DNA of 64,000 nucleotides from contig CAKOSO010000001.1 of assembly GCA_934102355.1 (NCBI GenBank), forward strand, positions 96,863-160,862. The letters are read 5' to 3'. Made by a program: the position numbers and the translations under genes. Below, one piece after another: positions 4,799 through 38,549 of this stretch (its first letter is position 1; each line of letters starts with the position of its first letter). The notes under the pieces were generated by a model. That model searched no databases. It worked only from the letters and a program-made list of their open reading frames with translations, and was not told where the DNA came from. The stretch is from an uncultured Bacilli bacterium. GTDB lineage: Bacteria > Bacillota_I > Bacilli_A > RF39 > UBA660.

Positions 4799-5488
4799 AT
4801 GAAAAAAATTATAAACATTTTATTATTTGTTGCACTATTTTTTACAGAAACATTTTTAAATTCAATTATATTTTACTCATTATATAGATTAGGAATAAAT
4901 ATTGATTCAATATATTTAAGACTTATAATTACTGTTATAAGTTGGATAGTATTTATGGTATTTATATTCCTTATATATCGTAAAAGTTTAATTGAAGAAT
5001 TTAAACTATACAAAAATAATTTTAAAAATTTCTTTATTTTTGGACTTAAAATATGGTTTATAGGTCTTACTATGATGGTTGTATCTAATATATTAATATC
5101 ATTTGTATATAGTAATAATTCCGCTAACGAAGAAGTAGTTCAATCCTACTTAGTTAAATATCCAATATATACTACTATTTCAACTCTTATATATGCTCCA
5201 TTTGTAGAAGAAATCATTTTTAGAAAAAGTTTAAAAGGTATTTTCGATAATAAAGCGTTATATATACTAATATCCGGTTTAATATTTGGACTTTGTCATG
5301 TAGTTGCAGGAATTGATAATACTATGGAACTATTATACTTAATACCTTACGGTATAATGGGTGCAAGTTTTGCTTATATTTATAGTAAGACTGATAGTAT
5401 TTTCGTATCAATGTCCATGCACTTTATACATAACTTAATTACACTTATAATATCTACTCTTCCTTATATAATTGGAGGTTTAGTATGA
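4799..5488 (+). CDS. CPBP family intramembrane metalloprotease (CAAX protease/Abi-like)
   Basis: Multi-TM protein with the CPBP motifs EEIIFRKSL (EExxxR), FGLCH (FxxxH) and HFIHN (HxxxN). Confidence 0.75.
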   Translation: MKKIINILLFVALFFTETFLNSIIFYSLYRLGINIDSIYLRLIITVISWIVFMVFIFLIYRKSLIEEFKLYKNNFKNFFIFGLKIWFIGLTMMVVSNILISFVYSNNSANEEVVQSYLVKYPIYTTISTLIYAPFVEEIIFRKSLKGIFDNKALYILISGLIFGLCHVVAGIDNTMELLYLIPYGIMGASFAYIYSKTDSIFVSMSMHFIHNLITLIISTLPYIIGGLV

Positions 5489-32448: not shown

Positions 32449-34185
32449 TTATATCTTCTTAGTTTCTATTTCATTCTTTATTAATTTGATGAATTCATCT
32501 TTAGATAATGTTGTAGTTTTTTCTTCTTTATATCTTCTGAAACTAATAGTATTATTATCTCTTTCATTATCTCCAAGTATTAAAGTTATTGGTATTTTCT
32601 TAGTAACAGCTTCTCTCATTCTGTAACCAACTTTTTCTTCTCTATCATCTAAATCAGCTCTAATATTTTGTTCTTTTAATAAATCTACTATTTCTTTTGC
32701 ATATTCTAAATGATAATTATTGTTTACTGGTATTACCCTTACTTGAACAGGTGCAAGCCATAGTGGAAAAGCTCCACCAAAATGTTCTATTAAAATTCCT
32801 ATAAATCTCTCAACTGATCCATATATTACCCTATGTAACATAACTGGTCTTTTCTTTGCTCCATCACTATCTACATATGTTAAATCAAATCTTTCAGGTA
32901 AATTCATATCCAATTGAATAGTACCACATTGCCATACTCTTCCTAATGAGTCTTTAATATGAAAATCAAGTTTTGGTCCATAGAAAGCGCCATCACCTGG
33001 ATTAATTTTACAAGCATGACCTGCTTTTCTACAAGCTTCCTCCAAAACTTTTTCAGACCTATTCCATACTTCTATTGATCCAATATATTTTTCTTCTGGT
33101 CTTGTAGATAATTCAATATCATATGTAAGCCCAAATACTTTATACATACGATCTATAAAATTAATCAAACGAATAATTTCTTCCTCAATTTGATCTTCTC
33201 TCATAAATATATGTGCATCATCCTGAGTAAATGTACGAACTCTAAATAATCCGTTTAATGCACCACTTGCTTCATGCCTATGTACTTGTCCCAATTCTCC
33301 CATTCTTATCGGTAAATCTTTATATGAATGAAGTGAATTTTTATAAACTAGCATTCCTCCAGGACAATTCATTGGTTTTATAGCAAATATTTTATCATCA
33401 ATTTCTGATGTGTACATATTTTCACGATAATTATACCAATGACCTGATAATTCCCATAATTCCTTATTTAACATTATAGGAGTTTTTACAAATTGATATC
33501 CTTCTTTAGTATGTTCTTGATACCAAAAATTTTCTAGTTCATTTCTTAGAATCATTCCATTAGGTAAAAAGAATGGAAATCCAGGACCATATTCTGAAAT
33601 CATAAATAATTCAAGTTCTTTTCCTAACTTTTTATGATCACGTTTTTTAGCTTCTTCTAAAAACTCTAAATGTTTTTGTAAGTCTTCTTCTGTCTCAAAG
33701 CAAACACCATAAATTCTTTGTAACATTTTATTTTTAGATTCGCCCTTCCAATAAGCACCAGATACTTTCAAAAGCTTAAAATGTTTTAATTCTTTTACTG
33801 TGTCAACATGTGGGCCACGGCAAAGATCTGTAAAATCACCTTGTGTATAGCATGATATAACTGCAGTATCATCCATATTGTTTATTAAATCAATCTTATA
33901 TGGATCATCTTTAAATTGTTCTAACGCTTCCTCTCTTGTAATTTCATGTCTTACAATTCTTTTACCATCTTTAGAAATTTTCTTCATTTCTTTTTCTATT
34001 TTTGGTAAATCTTCTTCCTTTATTACTTCATCACCAAGATCAATATCATAATAGAAACCTTCATCTATTACTGGTCCTACCCAAAACTTGGCTTGTGGGT
34101 AAAGATGTTTTACTGCTTGTGCAAGTAAATGTGCACATGAATGATTCATCATGCTTAAATGTTCATTTTCTTTAATACTTTCCAT
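32449..34185 (-). CDS. thrS: threonine--tRNA ligase (N-terminally short form lacking TGS domain)
   Basis: 578 aa beginning at the second additional domain (HSCAHLLAQAVKHLYP). Class II catalytic and anticodon-binding domains are intact. Strong RBS AAAGGAGAG at the start. Confidence 0.95.
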   Translation of the reverse strand: MESIKENEHLSMMNHSCAHLLAQAVKHLYPQAKFWVGPVIDEGFYYDIDLGDEVIKEEDLPKIEKEMKKISKDGKRIVRHEITREEALEQFKDDPYKIDLINNMDDTAVISCYTQGDFTDLCRGPHVDTVKELKHFKLLKVSGAYWKGESKNKMLQRIYGVCFETEEDLQKHLEFLEEAKKRDHKKLGKELELFMISEYGPGFPFFLPNGMILRNELENFWYQEHTKEGYQFVKTPIMLNKELWELSGHWYNYRENMYTSEIDDKIFAIKPMNCPGGMLVYKNSLHSYKDLPIRMGELGQVHRHEASGALNGLFRVRTFTQDDAHIFMREDQIEEEIIRLINFIDRMYKVFGLTYDIELSTRPEEKYIGSIEVWNRSEKVLEEACRKAGHACKINPGDGAFYGPKLDFHIKDSLGRVWQCGTIQLDMNLPERFDLTYVDSDGAKKRPVMLHRVIYGSVERFIGILIEHFGGAFPLWLAPVQVRVIPVNNNYHLEYAKEIVDLLKEQNIRADLDDREEKVGYRMREAVTKKIPITLILGDNERDNNTISFRRYKEEKTTTLSKDEFIKLIKNEIETKKI

Positions 34186-34430
34186 ATTTATCTCTCCTTT
34201 TAATTTATACTAGTAAAATAAAAAGACGCATCCACCAAGGAGCGTCTTTCGCGGTACCATCCTACTTTATAACTTATATTTATAACGGAATTACCCGAAC
34301 TTCTTTTCTAGTTTGCTCATAAGGTAGTAATTATAAATCTATTACACCAGTCTTTCAGCCCAGAACCAGTTCTCTATAGTAAATCAATTTAAAATCTTAT
34401 CCTTATTCTTCGCATTACACCGTAAATATT
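34186..34430 (-). promoter_or_regulatory. T-box leader (threonine) with intrinsic terminator upstream of thrS
   Basis: Minus-strand reading has GGATGGTACCGCG (T-box consensus GGGTGGTACCGCG), then the terminator AAAGACGCTCCTTGGTGGATGCGTCTTTTTATTTT at 34222-34249. Confidence 0.7.
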
Positions 34431-34431
34431 A

Positions 34432-35355
34432 TCACTTTAAATTTCTTCTGTCAATACTAGTTAGTTCAAGTGATGTTGTTAAGCTTTTAATTCTTTCAAT
34501 TATTCTTCGAGCTTTTAACTTTTCTGACTTTGTTCCACTAAAACTTAAGTGCTCCTCAAGTTCATCAATACTCATATTTGAAGTAAAAAAAGTTGGTAAG
34601 TTTTCTTCCATTCGATATTGAAGTATTGTTCCTAATATTTCATCTCTTCCCCATGGGGTTACATTCTCAGCTCCAATATCATCAATTAACAATAATGGCG
34701 TTTTTTTTACAAATGTAAATCTCTCATTATAACTTGCAGTATCATCTTTAGAAAATGACCCTTTTAATGTTCTTAGAAATTCCGGAAAATATATAATAGT
34801 TGATTCAACATCTTTTTTAGCTAGCTCATTAAATAAAGCTGCTATTATATATGTCTTACCACTACCAAAACTACCATATAAATATAACCCTTTATCTTTA
34901 TTTTCAAAGAAATTATTATAATAATTATTTATATATTTTATTATAGGTAATCTTTTTTCATCATCTGTATATATATCTTTTATCTTTGCATCCTTAAGTG
35001 ATGTTGGAATATCATATAACTTAACATTTTTCTTATAAGAACTGTCTTTTAATTCTTTCTTTTTATATTTACATGGAACATATGAAAAATTCAATACATC
35101 TTCATTAACACTAGGAAAATATACATAACCAGTTAAAGCATTTTTGCAATTTTTTAATCCTTTACAATTTTTACAATTATTATACTCAATTGATGAATCT
35201 TTTAATAATGAAGTATATTTTGATAAAACTTTTTCGCTACATGGAATAGCATCACATAAATTCTTAAACTTTTCATCTTTTAGATTTAATACAAATTCAT
35301 TTATCAAGTCTTGATCACTTGCTCTTTTTGAAATCATATTTTTAACAGCGTCCAT
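34432..35355 (-). CDS. dnaI: primosomal protein DnaI (helicase loader)
   Basis: N-terminal Cys-rich zinc-binding region (CKNCKGLKNCKN) and C-terminal AAA+ domain (GSFGSGKTY, LLLIDDIG). Upstream of thrS as in Bacillus. Confidence 0.75.
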   Translation of the reverse strand: MDAVKNMISKRASDQDLINEFVLNLKDEKFKNLCDAIPCSEKVLSKYTSLLKDSSIEYNNCKNCKGLKNCKNALTGYVYFPSVNEDVLNFSYVPCKYKKKELKDSSYKKNVKLYDIPTSLKDAKIKDIYTDDEKRLPIIKYINNYYNNFFENKDKGLYLYGSFGSGKTYIIAALFNELAKKDVESTIIYFPEFLRTLKGSFSKDDTASYNERFTFVKKTPLLLIDDIGAENVTPWGRDEILGTILQYRMEENLPTFFTSNMSIDELEEHLSFSGTKSEKLKARRIIERIKSLTTSLELTSIDRRNLK

Positions 35356-35422
35356 TTAAATCACCTAAAAATATTATAATGTATTTTTTAAAAAAAGACT
35401 ATGTTTATTTTAGAATTTATTT

Positions 35423-35596
35423 TTATTTAAATCCACACATTTTACCTGCTATAGTTCTCCTAAAACTACTTCCAATATTTCTTCCTACATCTAAAAGATC
35501 ATCAATTGCAGATATAATTACTTTTATTAATGCAGCAGATAAATTAATGCCTCCTTTCACCTTTTTTAATTCATTACTATTTAATTTTTTCATCAT
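35423..35596 (-). CDS. double-glycine leader peptide 2 (57 aa), candidate class IIb bacteriocin subunit; not in ORF track
   Basis: Translated by hand: MMKKLNSNELKKVKGG / INLSAALIKVIISAIDDLLDVGRNIGSSFRRTIAGKMCGFK. The leader matches the LSxxELxxIxGG pattern. Its ATG overlaps the stop of peptide 1 (ATGA). Confidence 0.6.
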   Translation of the reverse strand: MMKKLNSNELKKVKGGINLSAALIKVIISAIDDLLDVGRNIGSSFRRTIAGKMCGFK

Positions 35597-35730
35597 CGAC
35601 ACCTCAAAGGTCTAGTAAAACCATCTAGTATTCCACTTCCGAAAATTATACCTGCTATAGCAGAAATTATCGTCCAAATACCTACCCCACCTCTTATACT
35701 TTTTAATTCAACTTTACTTATTTCTTTCAT
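35593..35730 (-). CDS. double-glycine leader peptide 1 (45 aa), candidate class IIb bacteriocin subunit; not in ORF track
   Basis: Translated by hand: MKEISKVELKSIRGG / VGIWTIISAIAGIIFGSGILDGFTRPLRCR. Perfect RBS AAGGGAGG 6 nt upstream. Glycine-zipper-like GIIFG in the mature part. The start overlaps the last 17 nt of the transporter gene. Confidence 0.6.
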   Translation of the reverse strand: MKEISKVELKSIRGGVGIWTIISAIAGIIFGSGILDGFTRPLRCR

Positions 35731-37768
35731 AAACCTCCCTTAATTCAAAAACTTTATTAAACATACAAACATTATTCTTTCTATGAGAAATTAAAATAAC
35801 TGTTAAACCAGGATAGTACTTAAATATATTATTTAAAATTATCTTCTCTTCTTTTACATCTATTTCATTAAAACTTTCATCAAATATTAAGATATCTTTT
35901 ACTTTAAGAAGTGCCCTTGCAATTATCATTTTCTTCCTTTCTCCTCCCGAGAAATTATTGCAATTTTCCTCTATAAAATAATCTTCATCTATTTTCTTCT
36001 TTTCTAAAATTTCATTAATCAAACAAGTTTTAAATGCTTTATTTATTTTCTTTTTATCAGATGTTATTAATTTCATATTATTAATAATTGAATCATTACA
36101 AAGCATCTCATTTTGTGAAACATAAGTAATACTATTTCTTATATACTCTAATGGCAAATACTTTATATCTATTCCATCAATTAAAATTTTACCGCCAGTT
36201 AACTTATCATATTTTAGTAAAAGTTTTATTAATGTTGATTTACCTATACCACTTTTTCCAGTTATAAATAAATGACAATCTCTATTAATTTTTAAATTTA
36301 CTTTATCTAAAACAGACTTATTATTTATAACATATGTAACATCAATAAAATCAATACTTTTAATTCTCGATAGTTTTGTTTCTTTAAACTCTTCTTTTTC
36401 TATATCCAATATATCTAATATCTTATTTATAGATGATTGATATATTGTAAAATACAGTACTACATCACAAATATTTGCAATATAACTAACTCCAAAATAA
36501 AATAAACTAGAAAACAAAATCATATCATAAATACTTATTCTTTTTTTTATCACTAAATATGATGAAAATAACATAATTAAAATATAAAATATATCTATCA
36601 TGTTATTTAATACAAACTTATAATTATTACTTATTTTATAATAATCCCTTGTGCTATCAGATACTTTCTTATAAGTACTACCAACTCTTTTACATATTTT
36701 ATCTTCCACATGAAGACTTTTTATAGTGTTAAATGATGTAAAAAAGTTAAATATTTTCGAGTTAAAAATAATTTTATCACTCTTAAGTTTTAAATATCTA
36801 CTATTAAATATATTCTGATACTTATATGAAATAAATATAAGTACAGCTATAAAAATAATATAAATAATACAGTAAACATACGAAAAACTAACCAGATATA
36901 TAAGCAAACTTAAAATCACTAATATATCAATAATACACATTATTAAAAATTTTTCCGTTATAATTCTAAAATTTTCTATATCATTTATGATAGTAGATAA
37001 TTCCCCAGTTGTTTTTTTATAAAAATATTTGTATGGAAGGAAAATAATATGATTAAATACTTTTTTTATCATTTTTTTATCTATCTTTATATTTAGAAAT
37101 ATAACTAATTTATCCTTTATAAAACCTATAACATTCTTAAATAAATAAACTAATAAATAGATAAATGATATCCTTATTAAATTTGTTAAACCATTGTCTA
37201 AAAATTTTGTTAAATTACTAAAATAATAATTTGATAATATCGATATTATTATAAATAAAAGTGAAAGACCTATAATAAGTAATATAATACTCTTATTATT
37301 TTTCAAAAGATCGATTATTACTTTCTTAAATCTTTTATCTCTATCTCTTTTTAAAATATCACTTGAAAATAATATAAATATTCCTGTAGTTTCATTCTCA
37401 AATTCCTCATATGACTTTTCACAAATACCAATTGTCGGATCCATTACAATTAGTTTTTTACTTTTTTTATTATTTCTTAAGATAACAATATAATGAAAAT
37501 AGCTTTTATTTTTGATAGTATGCGCTATGACCGGATAGGTTTTATCATTTAAATCATTTATTGTTGCCTTAACTCCTTTCGCAGCAACTCCTATTACTTT
37601 ACTCACCCTAATTAAATCATATGCACTAACACCATCATCAATATTAATTAGTTCTAAAATTCTTTCCCGAGATATTTTAATACCAAATTGTAAAAATATT
37701 GTTATTAAACATGCTATCCCACAATCATATTTATCTTCTTGTAAAACAAAATTATATGACTCATTCAT
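35714..37768 (-). CDS. peptidase C39 domain-containing bacteriocin/competence-peptide ABC transporter (ComA/LagD/SunT-type)
   Basis: N-terminal C39 peptidase (YDCGIACL Cys, FHYIVI His), a 6-TM domain and a C-terminal ABC ATPase (GKSGIGKST, FSGGERKK, ILIFDE). Start set at MNESYNF with RBS GGGAGA. The longest ORF starts at 37783. Confidence 0.85.
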   Translation of the reverse strand: MNESYNFVLQEDKYDCGIACLITIFLQFGIKISRERILELINIDDGVSAYDLIRVSKVIGVAAKGVKATINDLNDKTYPVIAHTIKNKSYFHYIVILRNNKKSKKLIVMDPTIGICEKSYEEFENETTGIFILFSSDILKRDRDKRFKKVIIDLLKNNKSIILLIIGLSLLFIIISILSNYYFSNLTKFLDNGLTNLIRISFIYLLVYLFKNVIGFIKDKLVIFLNIKIDKKMIKKVFNHIIFLPYKYFYKKTTGELSTIINDIENFRIITEKFLIMCIIDILVILSLLIYLVSFSYVYCIIYIIFIAVLIFISYKYQNIFNSRYLKLKSDKIIFNSKIFNFFTSFNTIKSLHVEDKICKRVGSTYKKVSDSTRDYYKISNNYKFVLNNMIDIFYILIMLFSSYLVIKKRISIYDMILFSSLFYFGVSYIANICDVVLYFTIYQSSINKILDILDIEKEEFKETKLSRIKSIDFIDVTYVINNKSVLDKVNLKINRDCHLFITGKSGIGKSTLIKLLLKYDKLTGGKILIDGIDIKYLPLEYIRNSITYVSQNEMLCNDSIINNMKLITSDKKKINKAFKTCLINEILEKKKIDEDYFIEENCNNFSGGERKKMIIARALLKVKDILIFDESFNEIDVKEEKIILNNIFKYYPGLTVILISHRKNNVCMFNKVFELREVYERNK

Positions 37769-37829
37769 ATTATCTCCCTTCATAATAATTATTAGAGAGA
37801 AAATAAAAATAACCTACATAAGTAGATTA

Positions 37830-38549
37830 TTATTTTTGATTTGCTAAATTATAAAGTTGTTTTACCTCTTTAATTGTTAAACTTCTATATTCTTTAGAGT
37901 TCAAGCCTTGAAGATTTAAAAATGCAATCTTTTCTCTTTTTAATTTTAATACTTCATGTGAAACCGCCTCAAACATCTTCTTAACTTGATGATTTTTTCC
38001 TTCATGAATAGTTATTTCAACTATAGAAGTATTAGTCTTCTTATTAAAACTTCTAACCTTTACCTTTGAAGCAGAAGTTTTAACATTCTCAATTAAAACT
38101 CCACTTTTTAATTTTTTTTGCTCTTCTACAGTTAAAAAACCATTTATTTTTGCAACATACACTTTATCGATATTGTTTTTTGGATGCATAAGTAAATTGG
38201 ACAATTCACCATCATTAGTTAAAAGAATAAGTCCTGTTGTATCATAATCAAGTCTCCCCACTGGATATATTCTCTTATCTGTATCAATTAATGATACAAC
38301 TGTTTTTCTATTTAACTCATCACTCGTTGTTGACACATATCCACGTGGTTTATTAAGTAAAAAATATACCTTTTCTTCTTTACCTAAGATTACTCCATCG
38401 ATTTCTATCTTATCATTTTTATTAACCTTCGTACCAAGACTATTTACTATTACACCATTAACTTTGACTCTTGAATTTATAATTAATTCTTCTGCTTTTC
38501 TCCTAGAAGTATATCCAGAATTAGCAATAACTTTTTGAAGTCTTTCCAT
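37830..38549 (-). CDS. RNA pseudouridine synthase, RsuA/RluB family (S4 domain + PseudoU_synth)
   Basis: S4 domain MERLQKVIANSGYTSRRKAEELI and catalytic VGRLDYDTTGLILLTNDG motif. Confidence 0.8.
   Translation of the reverse strand: MERLQKVIANSGYTSRRKAEELIINSRVKVNGVIVNSLGTKVNKNDKIEIDGVILGKEEKVYFLLNKPRGYVSTTSDELNRKTVVSLIDTDKRIYPVGRLDYDTTGLILLTNDGELSNLLMHPKNNIDKVYVAKINGFLTVEEQKKLKSGVLIENVKTSASKVKVRSFNKKTNTSIVEITIHEGKNHQVKKMFEAVSHEVLKLKREKIAFLNLQGLNSKEYRSLTIKEVKQLYNLANQK

Follow-up and report, generated by a model that had tools for sequence, protein, structure and literature searches.

A putative two-peptide, class IIb-like bacteriocin cassette in an uncultured low-GC Bacilli bacterium and its family of related loci

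In this study we analyse a stretch of 64,000 nucleotides (nt) from an uncultured Bacilli bacterium (contig CAKOSO010000001.1, positions 96,863 to 160,862; hereafter the window), and within it a cassette of three genes on the minus strand, in which a gene for an ATP-binding cassette (ABC) exporter with a C39 peptidase domain is followed by two small genes, here called pepA and pepB. On the whole, the cassette is probably the minimal form of a two-peptide bacteriocin locus of class IIb-like type, carried by an uncultured, low-GC, Bacilli/Mollicutes-like bacterium of the gut. We read it in this way because the gene order exporter-pepA-pepB is conserved, the double glycine (GG), the GxxxG motifs and the Cys are invariant, relatives fall into the curated class IIb model TIGR03949, the ratio of non-synonymous to synonymous substitution rates (dN/dS) is about 0.1, a natural fusion of the two peptides occurs, and the peptides are cationic and hydrophobic; an antimicrobial activity of pepA and pepB would be in keeping with these features. 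The kind of system is one to be expected, and the family behind it is large, uncharacterised and found in uncultured gut and rumen bacteria.

Two small genes behind the exporter

The exporter gene (35714-37768, 684 aa) is preceded by a Shine-Dalgarno (SD) sequence GGGAG at 37778-37774, and its stop end overlaps the start of pepA by 17 nt. The pepA gene (35593-35730) encodes a precursor of 45 aa with an ATG start and a TGA stop, in which the leader MKEISKVELKSIRGG (35686-35730, 15 aa) is followed by a predicted mature peptide VGIWTIISAIAGIIFGSGILDGFTRPLRCR of 30 aa (35596-35685; 3203.8 Da, isoelectric point (pI) 10.3). The pepB gene (35423-35596) encodes 57 aa from its first ATG, with the leader MMKKLNSNELKKVKGG (35549-35596, 16 aa, or 15 aa from a start at 35593) and a predicted mature peptide INLSAALIKVIISAIDDLLDVGRNIGSSFRRTIAGKMCGFK of 41 aa (35426-35548; 4378.2 Da, pI 9.8), all of these being on the minus strand. 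Both open reading frames (ORFs) had been translated by hand in an earlier reading of the bare letters (the sequence-only reading), and that transcription proves exact. They were then called unannotated, which is true of the ORF track supplied at the time but not of public data, where both peptides have already been called in human gut metagenome assemblies (NCBI, ENA and Logan), with no name and no Pfam match.

The same reading ascribed a perfect ribosome-binding site to the first peptide and translational coupling by an ATGA overlap to the pair, and both are borne out: AGGGAGG precedes pepA at 35740-35734, within the 3' end of the exporter gene, and the ATGA shared by pepA and pepB lies at 35596-35593. 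The coupling junction as a whole (35593-35605, minus strand) consists of an SD-like GAGGTG at 35605-35600 and then ATGATG over the pepA TGA stop. The overlapping genes are shown to be arranged in the manner predicted for coupled translation, and coupled translation of pepA and pepB would in turn yield roughly equimolar peptides. Strong SD sequences and a similar exporter/pepA overlap are also found in relatives, and in a close allele (L174) the pepA/pepB junction is a 1-nt overlap of TGATG type. The second ATG of pepB, at 35593, would give 56 aa and may be the start in use, since the close variants P0021 and P0022 begin with a single Met; a GTG start at 35602 (59 aa) has no SD. For the exporter, an alternative ATG at 37783 would give 689 aa; public gene callers take the 684 aa start, and an exact look-up finds the 684 aa form and no match for the 689 aa form. 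In addition, the leader-coding segments of the two small genes (35550-35593 and 35687-35730, 137 nt apart) share 70% DNA identity over 44 nt, consistent with a derivation of the two leaders by duplication.

Six-frame translation of the window gives 135 ORFs of 35-90 aa, and only two of them, pepA and pepB, match the GG-leader pattern, which is more than chance. The L174 allele, which is 86% identical in DNA and has the layout exporter-pepA-pepB-dnaI as in the window, is separated from it by a synonymous divergence (dS) of 0.64-0.77, with dN/dS of 0.11 for pepA, 0.10 for pepB and 0.07 for dnaI, the helicase loader gene next downstream. Between the two alleles, synonymous and non-synonymous changes number 11 and 1 in mature pepA and 11 and 4 in mature pepB. 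Both genes are under purifying selection. An ORF of 78 aa runs antisense to pepB (35379-35615, plus strand), and its existence speaks for the view that pepA and pepB are chance ORFs in AT-rich DNA, with the true feature on the opposite strand. We regard this view as already refuted, and the 78 aa ORF is rejected as a real feature, since synonymous changes predominate in the sense frames and stops interrupt the antisense ORF in L174. The sequence-only reading had named conservation of the antisense frame in place of the sense frames as a ground for abandoning the two genes; actually, it is the sense frames, with their invariant motifs, that are kept across dozens of loci (more than 80). Another reading of the letters, with TGA as Trp (code 4) and pepA extended, is rejected by the counts of ORF ends and TGG codons: TGA is a true stop, ending 11 of the 52 long ORFs, with no in-frame TGA and with 61 TGG codons. 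In this connection, the public 74 aa 'protein' P0004 of the loci L175 and L176 is an artefact of a gene caller reading TGA as Trp, while the genome uses code 11.

Leaders, motifs, exporter and the family of related loci

Both leaders fit the double-glycine consensus that had been assigned to them, with hydrophobic residues at -4 (I/V), -7 (L) and -12 (I/L), Glu at -8, and GG at -2/-1. Mature pepA is very hydrophobic with a basic tail (grand average of hydropathy, GRAVY, +1.0), and mature pepB is amphipathic and basic. The glycine-zipper-like character claimed for the mature regions is found as an invariant GxxxG in each peptide: in the window, pepA has GIIFG and GILDG, with G33 and G37 invariant in the family, and pepB has GRNIG (G38 invariant, G42 at least 90% conserved) as well as GKMCG. 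Throughout the family, pepA follows the pattern GG, hydrophobic helix, invariant G-x3-G, [YF]-x-R-P-x-x-C and 1-2 further residues, and pepB the pattern GG, amphipathic stretch, G-[RQK]-x-x-G-[ST]-[SA]-x-R-R and, 0-4 residues before the C-terminus, an invariant Cys. The single Cys noted earlier in each mature peptide is conserved family-wide near each C-terminus. Of 64 distinct sequences of mature pepA, 60 have exactly one Cys, and so have 54 of 56 for mature pepB; the cases with zero Cys include sequences that end at a contig end. To our knowledge, no class IIb pair has one conserved C-terminal Cys in each peptide, and literature searches for a disulfide-linked class IIb pair gave no report of one.

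Word-indexed protein searches with pepA or pepB return near-identical variants only, and the wider family was reached only through exporter homologues, exhaustive HMMER searches and a pattern scan of metagenomes. Among exporter homologues of 31-58% identity, all readable contigs show the exporter, a pepA-like ORF of 44-49 aa and a pepB-like ORF of 54-67 aa, and the flanks of these cassettes are unrelated housekeeping genes (rpoZ, rseP...thyA, obg, rpsU). Taken over all homologues with this gene order, the identity to the exporter of the window spans 25-58%. The HMMER search with pepB over 1.84 billion representatives gives 60 hits at E<=1e-3, nearly all of them GG-leader peptides of 49-76 aa; this one-sequence search amounts to about 60 pepB clusters at 50% identity. 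A pattern derived from the pepA alignment and scanned over metagenome contigs adds 80 further loci from rumen, human gut and digesters. Overall, 87 related loci were examined, with G+C contents of 19-44% (median 25%). pepB directly follows pepA in 80 of the 81 loci with room for it, and the exporter lies upstream in nearly all loci with enough upstream sequence, none being detected in L132, L171 and L172. In the protein P0119 (102 aa), one ORF carries a pepA-like peptide and, in frame behind it, a further GG leader with a pepB-like peptide. Two cleavage sites are predicted in it, and this natural fusion supports a functional partnership of pepA and pepB. In one sub-clade (L082, L083, L086, L089, L090, L092) the genes are even more tightly nested: the pepB ATG lies inside the GAT-GG. 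codons of the invariant Asp-Gly of pepA, the pepA/pepB overlaps reach about 29-35 nt with a longer pepB leader (MxxQDxLxV...), and the ATG of a third small gene, orfC, overlaps the Cys codon of pepB, so that three small genes form a nested overlap chain. A comparison with 185,579 species-representative genomes gives no more than 62% identity for the nearest DnaI, and the metagenome-assembled genomes concerned are labelled Bacilli bacterium, uncultured Mycoplasma or Tenericutes. Named relatives are filed by NCBI taxonomy under Bacilli or Mollicutes incertae sedis, a group that probably corresponds to RF39 of GTDB. A tblastn search of consensus-like pepA and pepB against 72,556 plasmids gives no match.

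The exporter has the architecture of a peptidase-containing ABC transporter (PCAT), that is, a C39 domain, a six-helix transmembrane domain and an ATPase, with catalytic Cys, His and Asp. Its Pfam matches are Peptidase_C39 (5.5e-29), ABC_membrane (1.9e-23) and ABC_tran (1.5e-24). Among solved structures, PCAT1 (4RY2) aligns over the full length with E=4.6e-68, and ComA comes next, end-to-end, with E about 1e-58. In the C39 domain (37364-37756, minus strand; residues 10-140 when numbered on the 689 aa form), the oxyanion Gln, the Cys (YDCGIACL), the His (YFHYIVIL) and the Asp (VMDPTIG) align with Q, C, H and D of PCAT1, which we take to be its catalytic residues. The ATPase domain (35867-36310, minus strand) keeps Walker A GKSGIGKST, the signature FSGGERKK, Walker B ILIFDES with its Glu, and the H-loop SHR. 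The sequence-only description of a ComA/LagD-type exporter with an intact C39 domain is well founded as regards the full catalytic set and the ATPase motifs. The exporter scores 264.7 bits with TIGR01193 (bacteriocin_ABC), below the cutoff of 523.85, and 254.0 bits with NF045998, far below the cutoff of 500; its closest public homologues share 41-58% identity with it, and none of them is named. Judged by these comparisons, it is a divergent branch of the PCATs. The G+C content is 17-20% in the exporter region and 25-30% in the flanks; a low value would also be expected for a membrane protein in an AT-rich genome.

Class IIb bacteriocins are defined by two adjacent genes in one operon, whose peptides are both needed for activity; the preforms carry a leader of double-glycine type of 15-30 residues, leader removal after GG and export of the peptide fall to a dedicated ABC transporter, the operon of the structural genes always includes the immunity gene, and GxxxG motifs serve helix-helix packing (PMC2850506). 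In the window, pepA and pepB overlap on one strand, and each has such a leader and GxxxG. The dedicated exporter gene stands immediately 5' of pepA and overlaps it, with motifs intact, and cleavage and export of the two peptides would be predicted from it. The class IIb two-peptide assignment proposed by the sequence-only reading holds as regards adjacency, coupling, leaders, the C39 exporter and GxxxG, and the antimicrobial activity stays its predicted part. That both peptides would be needed for activity has indirect support in the obligate adjacency of their genes, the coupling overlaps and the fusion P0119. Curated models agree at the level of the family. With TIGR03949 (class IIb, lactobin A/cerein 7B; cutoff 21.5 bits), pepB of the window scores 15.8 and pepA 20.8, which falls 0.7 bits short, while all ten tested pepA family members match the model and six of eight relatives pass with 24.2-27.4 bits over the whole 45-position profile; as far as such profiles can tell, the pepA family belongs to TIGR03949. 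For the leader models, which had been suggested as a check, matches are present but the window peptides stay under the cutoffs: PF10439 (Bacteriocin_IIc, threshold 27.1 bits) gives 15.9 for pepA and 14.0 for pepB, with a best E of about 1e-3 among relatives, and in the GG-leader model TIGR01847 both are just below the cutoff (pepB 15.0 against 15.7). Profiles of both peptide families find nothing significant among PDB sequences; the one suggestive match, to CtA, the cargo of PCAT1, is confined to the leader (E about 1). No paper describing the family motifs was found in a literature search that did not extend to the peptide lists of a gut class II survey (PMC12648112).

Genomic site, missing immunity gene and alternative readings

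On the minus strand the gene order is transketolase, an RsuA/RluB-type pseudouridine synthase (37830-38549), which is the upstream neighbour and lies outside the cassette, then the cassette, dnaI (34432-35355; NF006505 DnaI, 271.7 bits, cutoff 228) and thrS. The sequence-only reading regarded the cassette as an accessory insert in a conserved dnaI-thrS neighbourhood. The accessory character is supported, the sites of the cassette differing by lineage, but synteny upstream of dnaI is loose. A cassette within 10 kb of dnaI is found in none of 70 relatives. A DnaB/DnaD-like gene lies directly upstream of dnaI in L046 (5192-10001) and with two small genes between in L013 (7827-9961); no such gene is present in the window, where the cassette fills that position (35356-37829). 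A pseudouridine synthase gene is placed 4.8 kb upstream of dnaI in L046 and L049, with five genes between in L046. Direct repeats flanking the 2.4 kb module were not found, the only notable repeat being the two leader-coding segments. Taken together, these comparisons indicate that the cassette is lineage-specific at dnaI and occupies other sites elsewhere. As a separate observation, L048, L050 and L056 carry a C39 ABC exporter, 30% identical to that of the window, about 8 kb downstream of dnaI-thrS (at about 18.8-20.9 kb), where the sequence of the locus breaks off ahead of any cargo genes.

Some features of the neighbouring genes may be recorded here. Upstream of thrS, a T-box leader (34235-34419, minus strand) with a terminator hairpin, a T-run and an ACC triplet scores 70.3 bits (E=1.8e-15); this is below the Rfam gathering score of 93, and the leader was therefore missed in the whole-window scan at gathering threshold. 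The threonyl-tRNA synthetase itself (32449-34185, minus strand, 578 aa) starts in the tRNA_SAD/editing region with no TGS domain in its Pfam list; the short form looks like a lineage feature, since thrS matches in relatives are of similar length. Directly upstream of a SpoU methylase gene lies a gene for a membrane-anchored DUF6568/'PedC-like' protein (PF20207; 31887-32393, minus strand) with a conserved C-x6-C. It is 48% identical to a counterpart in L090 (707-1210), which is likewise paired with SpoU, and in both cases it is less than 5 kb from the cassette. That this protein oxidises the single-Cys peptides is conceivable but unsupported, as is any tie to the cassette; the SpoU pairing here and in L090 gives it the look of a core gene pair.

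In most relatives pepB is followed by orfC, of 45-62 aa, whose ATG overlaps the pepB Cys codon. It lacks a GG leader, is predicted to form one membrane helix and carries the motif G-x3-G-[ST]-x-x-R; most copies also have a C-terminal Cys. A hidden Markov model finds orfC in 51 of 74 related loci, to which divergent copies are added. From its position and character we read it as a likely immunity protein. About half of the loci also have orfX, an ORF of 130-160 aa with an N-terminal membrane helix between exporter and pepA, which may encode an accessory protein. Neither orfC nor orfX matches a Pfam family. In the window, the sequence-only reading saw no immunity gene and no HlyD-like accessory gene before dnaI, and this is correct: the dnaI start comes 67 nt past the pepB stop, which leaves no space for a third small ORF, and the orfC model finds nothing over the window. 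As a statement on the system, the absence of third genes does not carry over to the relatives, most of which have orfC and about half orfX, so the window holds a reduced version. Minimal exporter-pepA-pepB cassettes occur also in L082, the nearest relative with readable downstream sequence, and in several other lineages, with pepB followed directly by genes whose products resemble RNA polymerase omega (L082, with a Pfam label) or, judged by sequence, either ribosomal protein S21 or a transferase of FemAB type. Because the window lineage and L082 lack orfC, self-protection in this lineage must come from elsewhere or through a missing receptor.

For some class IIb bacteriocins, immunity is provided by proteins of the Abi/CAAX-protease family. 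A homologue of this family (Rce1-like) is encoded at 4799-5488 on the plus strand, 49% identical to one that lies 3.5 kb from the cassette of L090. As an immunity gene of the present cassette it is rejected, being 30 kb off and not tied to it.

A number of points weigh against a class IIb-like bacteriocin. The window has no immunity gene in the operon and, with neither orfC nor orfX at the cassette, is a minimal variant. No regulator gene adjoins the cassette, and promoter and terminator signals are none above background (36 sites against 39.5 expected in AT-rich DNA). Mature pepA and pepB alone match nothing among the curated bacteriocin models, the scores being largely leader-dependent; because mature pepA alone matches nothing, its TIGR03949 signal is partly leader-driven, and for the mature domain of pepB there is no curated family and no solved relative. 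Some strains also have damaged alleles. Two independent assemblies of the same species (L175, 1-1721; L176, 1-1427) agree with the window as far as the '..GILDG' codons in pepA, with the junction at 35621, and beyond it pepA is interrupted by unrelated, foreign DNA, the encoded protein of which resembles, judged by eye, the DnaD/replisome-organiser type; the junction may have arisen through insertion of a mobile element into pepA or through a rearrangement. In L174 the exporter changes frame about 85 codons before its end (about 300-580), which is either a real frameshift or a low-coverage assembly error.

These points lead to the other explanations. The same disrupted pepA alleles and frameshifted exporter, together with the absence of orfX and orfC, could mean that the cassette is a decaying, non-functional remnant of an exporter-orfX-pepA-pepB-orfC locus. 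This is quite unlikely in our estimate: the exporter is full length with all motifs intact, the strong SD sequences and coupling overlaps are retained, minimal exporter-pepA-pepB cassettes recur in several lineages, and pepA and pepB evolve with dN/dS about 0.1 at dS about 0.7, near the level of dnaI. One may also suppose that the peptides are exported and membrane-active but aimed at something other than competitors, as a cytolysin or modulator of host or eukaryotic cells or as an agent on the own envelope of the producer, which would explain a dispensable immunity. With this agree the loss of orfC in the window, L082 and several other lineages where pepA and pepB are intact, and the location of the cassettes among core genes of small host-associated genomes; but all recognisable similarity is to bacteriocin models, and most family members keep the putative immunity ORF, so that we hold such a target to be unlikely.

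Export of GG-leader peptides by C39 ABC transporters also produces the ComC and BlpC pheromones, and pepA and pepB might be a pair of exported signalling peptides and not toxins. ComA is among the best solved relatives of the exporter after PCAT1, a few family members weakly match the BlpC, ComC and EntF induction-factor models at the level of the leader, and the window has no immunity gene. Signalling of the ComC/BlpC type goes with a cognate kinase and regulator, and the cassette has neither; in fact, no histidine kinase or response regulator is found beside it or among the Pfam-labelled genes around the cassettes of eight relatives. Moreover, mature peptides of 30 and 41 aa that are strongly hydrophobic or amphipathic, with invariant GxxxG, are unlike short pheromones, and the two-peptide pairing, with a leaderless membrane ORF in most relatives, fits toxin plus immunity. 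We consider a pheromone pair very unlikely.

Proposed mechanism and comparison with known systems

If the cassette encodes a two-peptide bacteriocin, its action would follow steps that we derive from what is established for PCATs and for class IIb bacteriocins in general. The C39 domain would cleave after GG during export, freeing the very hydrophobic 30 aa pepA with its basic tail and the amphipathic, basic 41 aa pepB. In the target membrane the two would pack helix-to-helix through the invariant GxxxG, and the pair would probably use a membrane protein as its receptor and make the membrane leaky, as lactococcin G and the plantaricins do. The conserved C-terminal Cys of each peptide may, speculatively, form the inter-peptide disulfide that the sequence-only reading had already thought of. 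A further proposal, which we offer tentatively and think rather improbable, is that pepA and pepB are secreted as a disulfide-linked heterodimer (about 7580 Da), with orfC as a mimic of pepB and with orfC-less lineages either insensitive or putting the pair to another use. The tail G-x3-G-[ST]-x-x-R...C is shared by orfC and pepB, and as a membrane-borne mimic of pepB, orfC might shield the producer. Lineages that, like that of the window, have lost orfC while the peptides stay under purifying selection might be intrinsically insensitive, for example by having no receptor, or the pair might not serve to kill close kin. If true, such a covalent heterodimer would be a two-chain bacteriocin subclass undescribed for class IIb.

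The cassette thus represents a large family of peptide pairs, as yet without a name, in human gut, rumen and digester metagenomes; the carriers of the family are uncultured, small-genome, low-GC, Bacilli/Mollicutes-like bacteria with a poorly known ecology. Should the peptides prove active, they would represent antimicrobials of narrow spectrum from a lineage in which no bacteriocin has been characterised. The family raises the questions whether the one-Cys rule reflects a covalent heterodimer, whether orfC is an immunity factor, and how minimal cassettes escape self-killing. There is also a lesson for annotation, in that pepB-type precursors have no curated model and pepA-type precursors sit right at the TIGR03949 threshold.

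Finally, we compare the cassette with known models and systems. In TIGR03949, the pepA score rests on the leader and the Gly/Ala-rich helix; the C-terminal DG[YF]xRPxxC of the family lies outside the model, and pepB is not covered. For NF045998, the Mbov_0121 family peptidase domain-containing ABC transporter of Mycoplasma, the score is near that obtained with TIGR01193 and far below the cutoff, so the exporter is not a member. The streptococcal ComAB/BlpAB systems share the same logic of export and processing, but the window has no ComB/BlpB accessory, no two-component system and no pheromone-sized peptide. With PCAT1/CtA of Clostridium thermocellum (PDB 4RY2, 7S5J and others), the likeness consists in a stand-alone peptidase-containing exporter, without a HlyD/ComB-type partner and with Q/C/H/D conserved; the relation is distant, however, and the cargo in the window is two peptides encoded 3' of the exporter. 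There is a likeness in design to class IIb systems such as lactococcin G, plantaricin EF/JK and enterocin 1071 (PMC2850506), with which the cassette shares adjacent genes, GG leaders (15-16 aa here), a dedicated C39 exporter, mature peptides that are cationic, 30-41 aa long and provided with GxxxG, and an overlap favouring equimolar synthesis. It differs from them in that the window cassette has no immunity or accessory gene, the mature regions have no significant similarity, each peptide of the window family has exactly one conserved C-terminal Cys, and the host is an uncultured low-GC gut bacterium of a Bacilli/Mollicutes-like lineage in place of a lactic acid bacterium.

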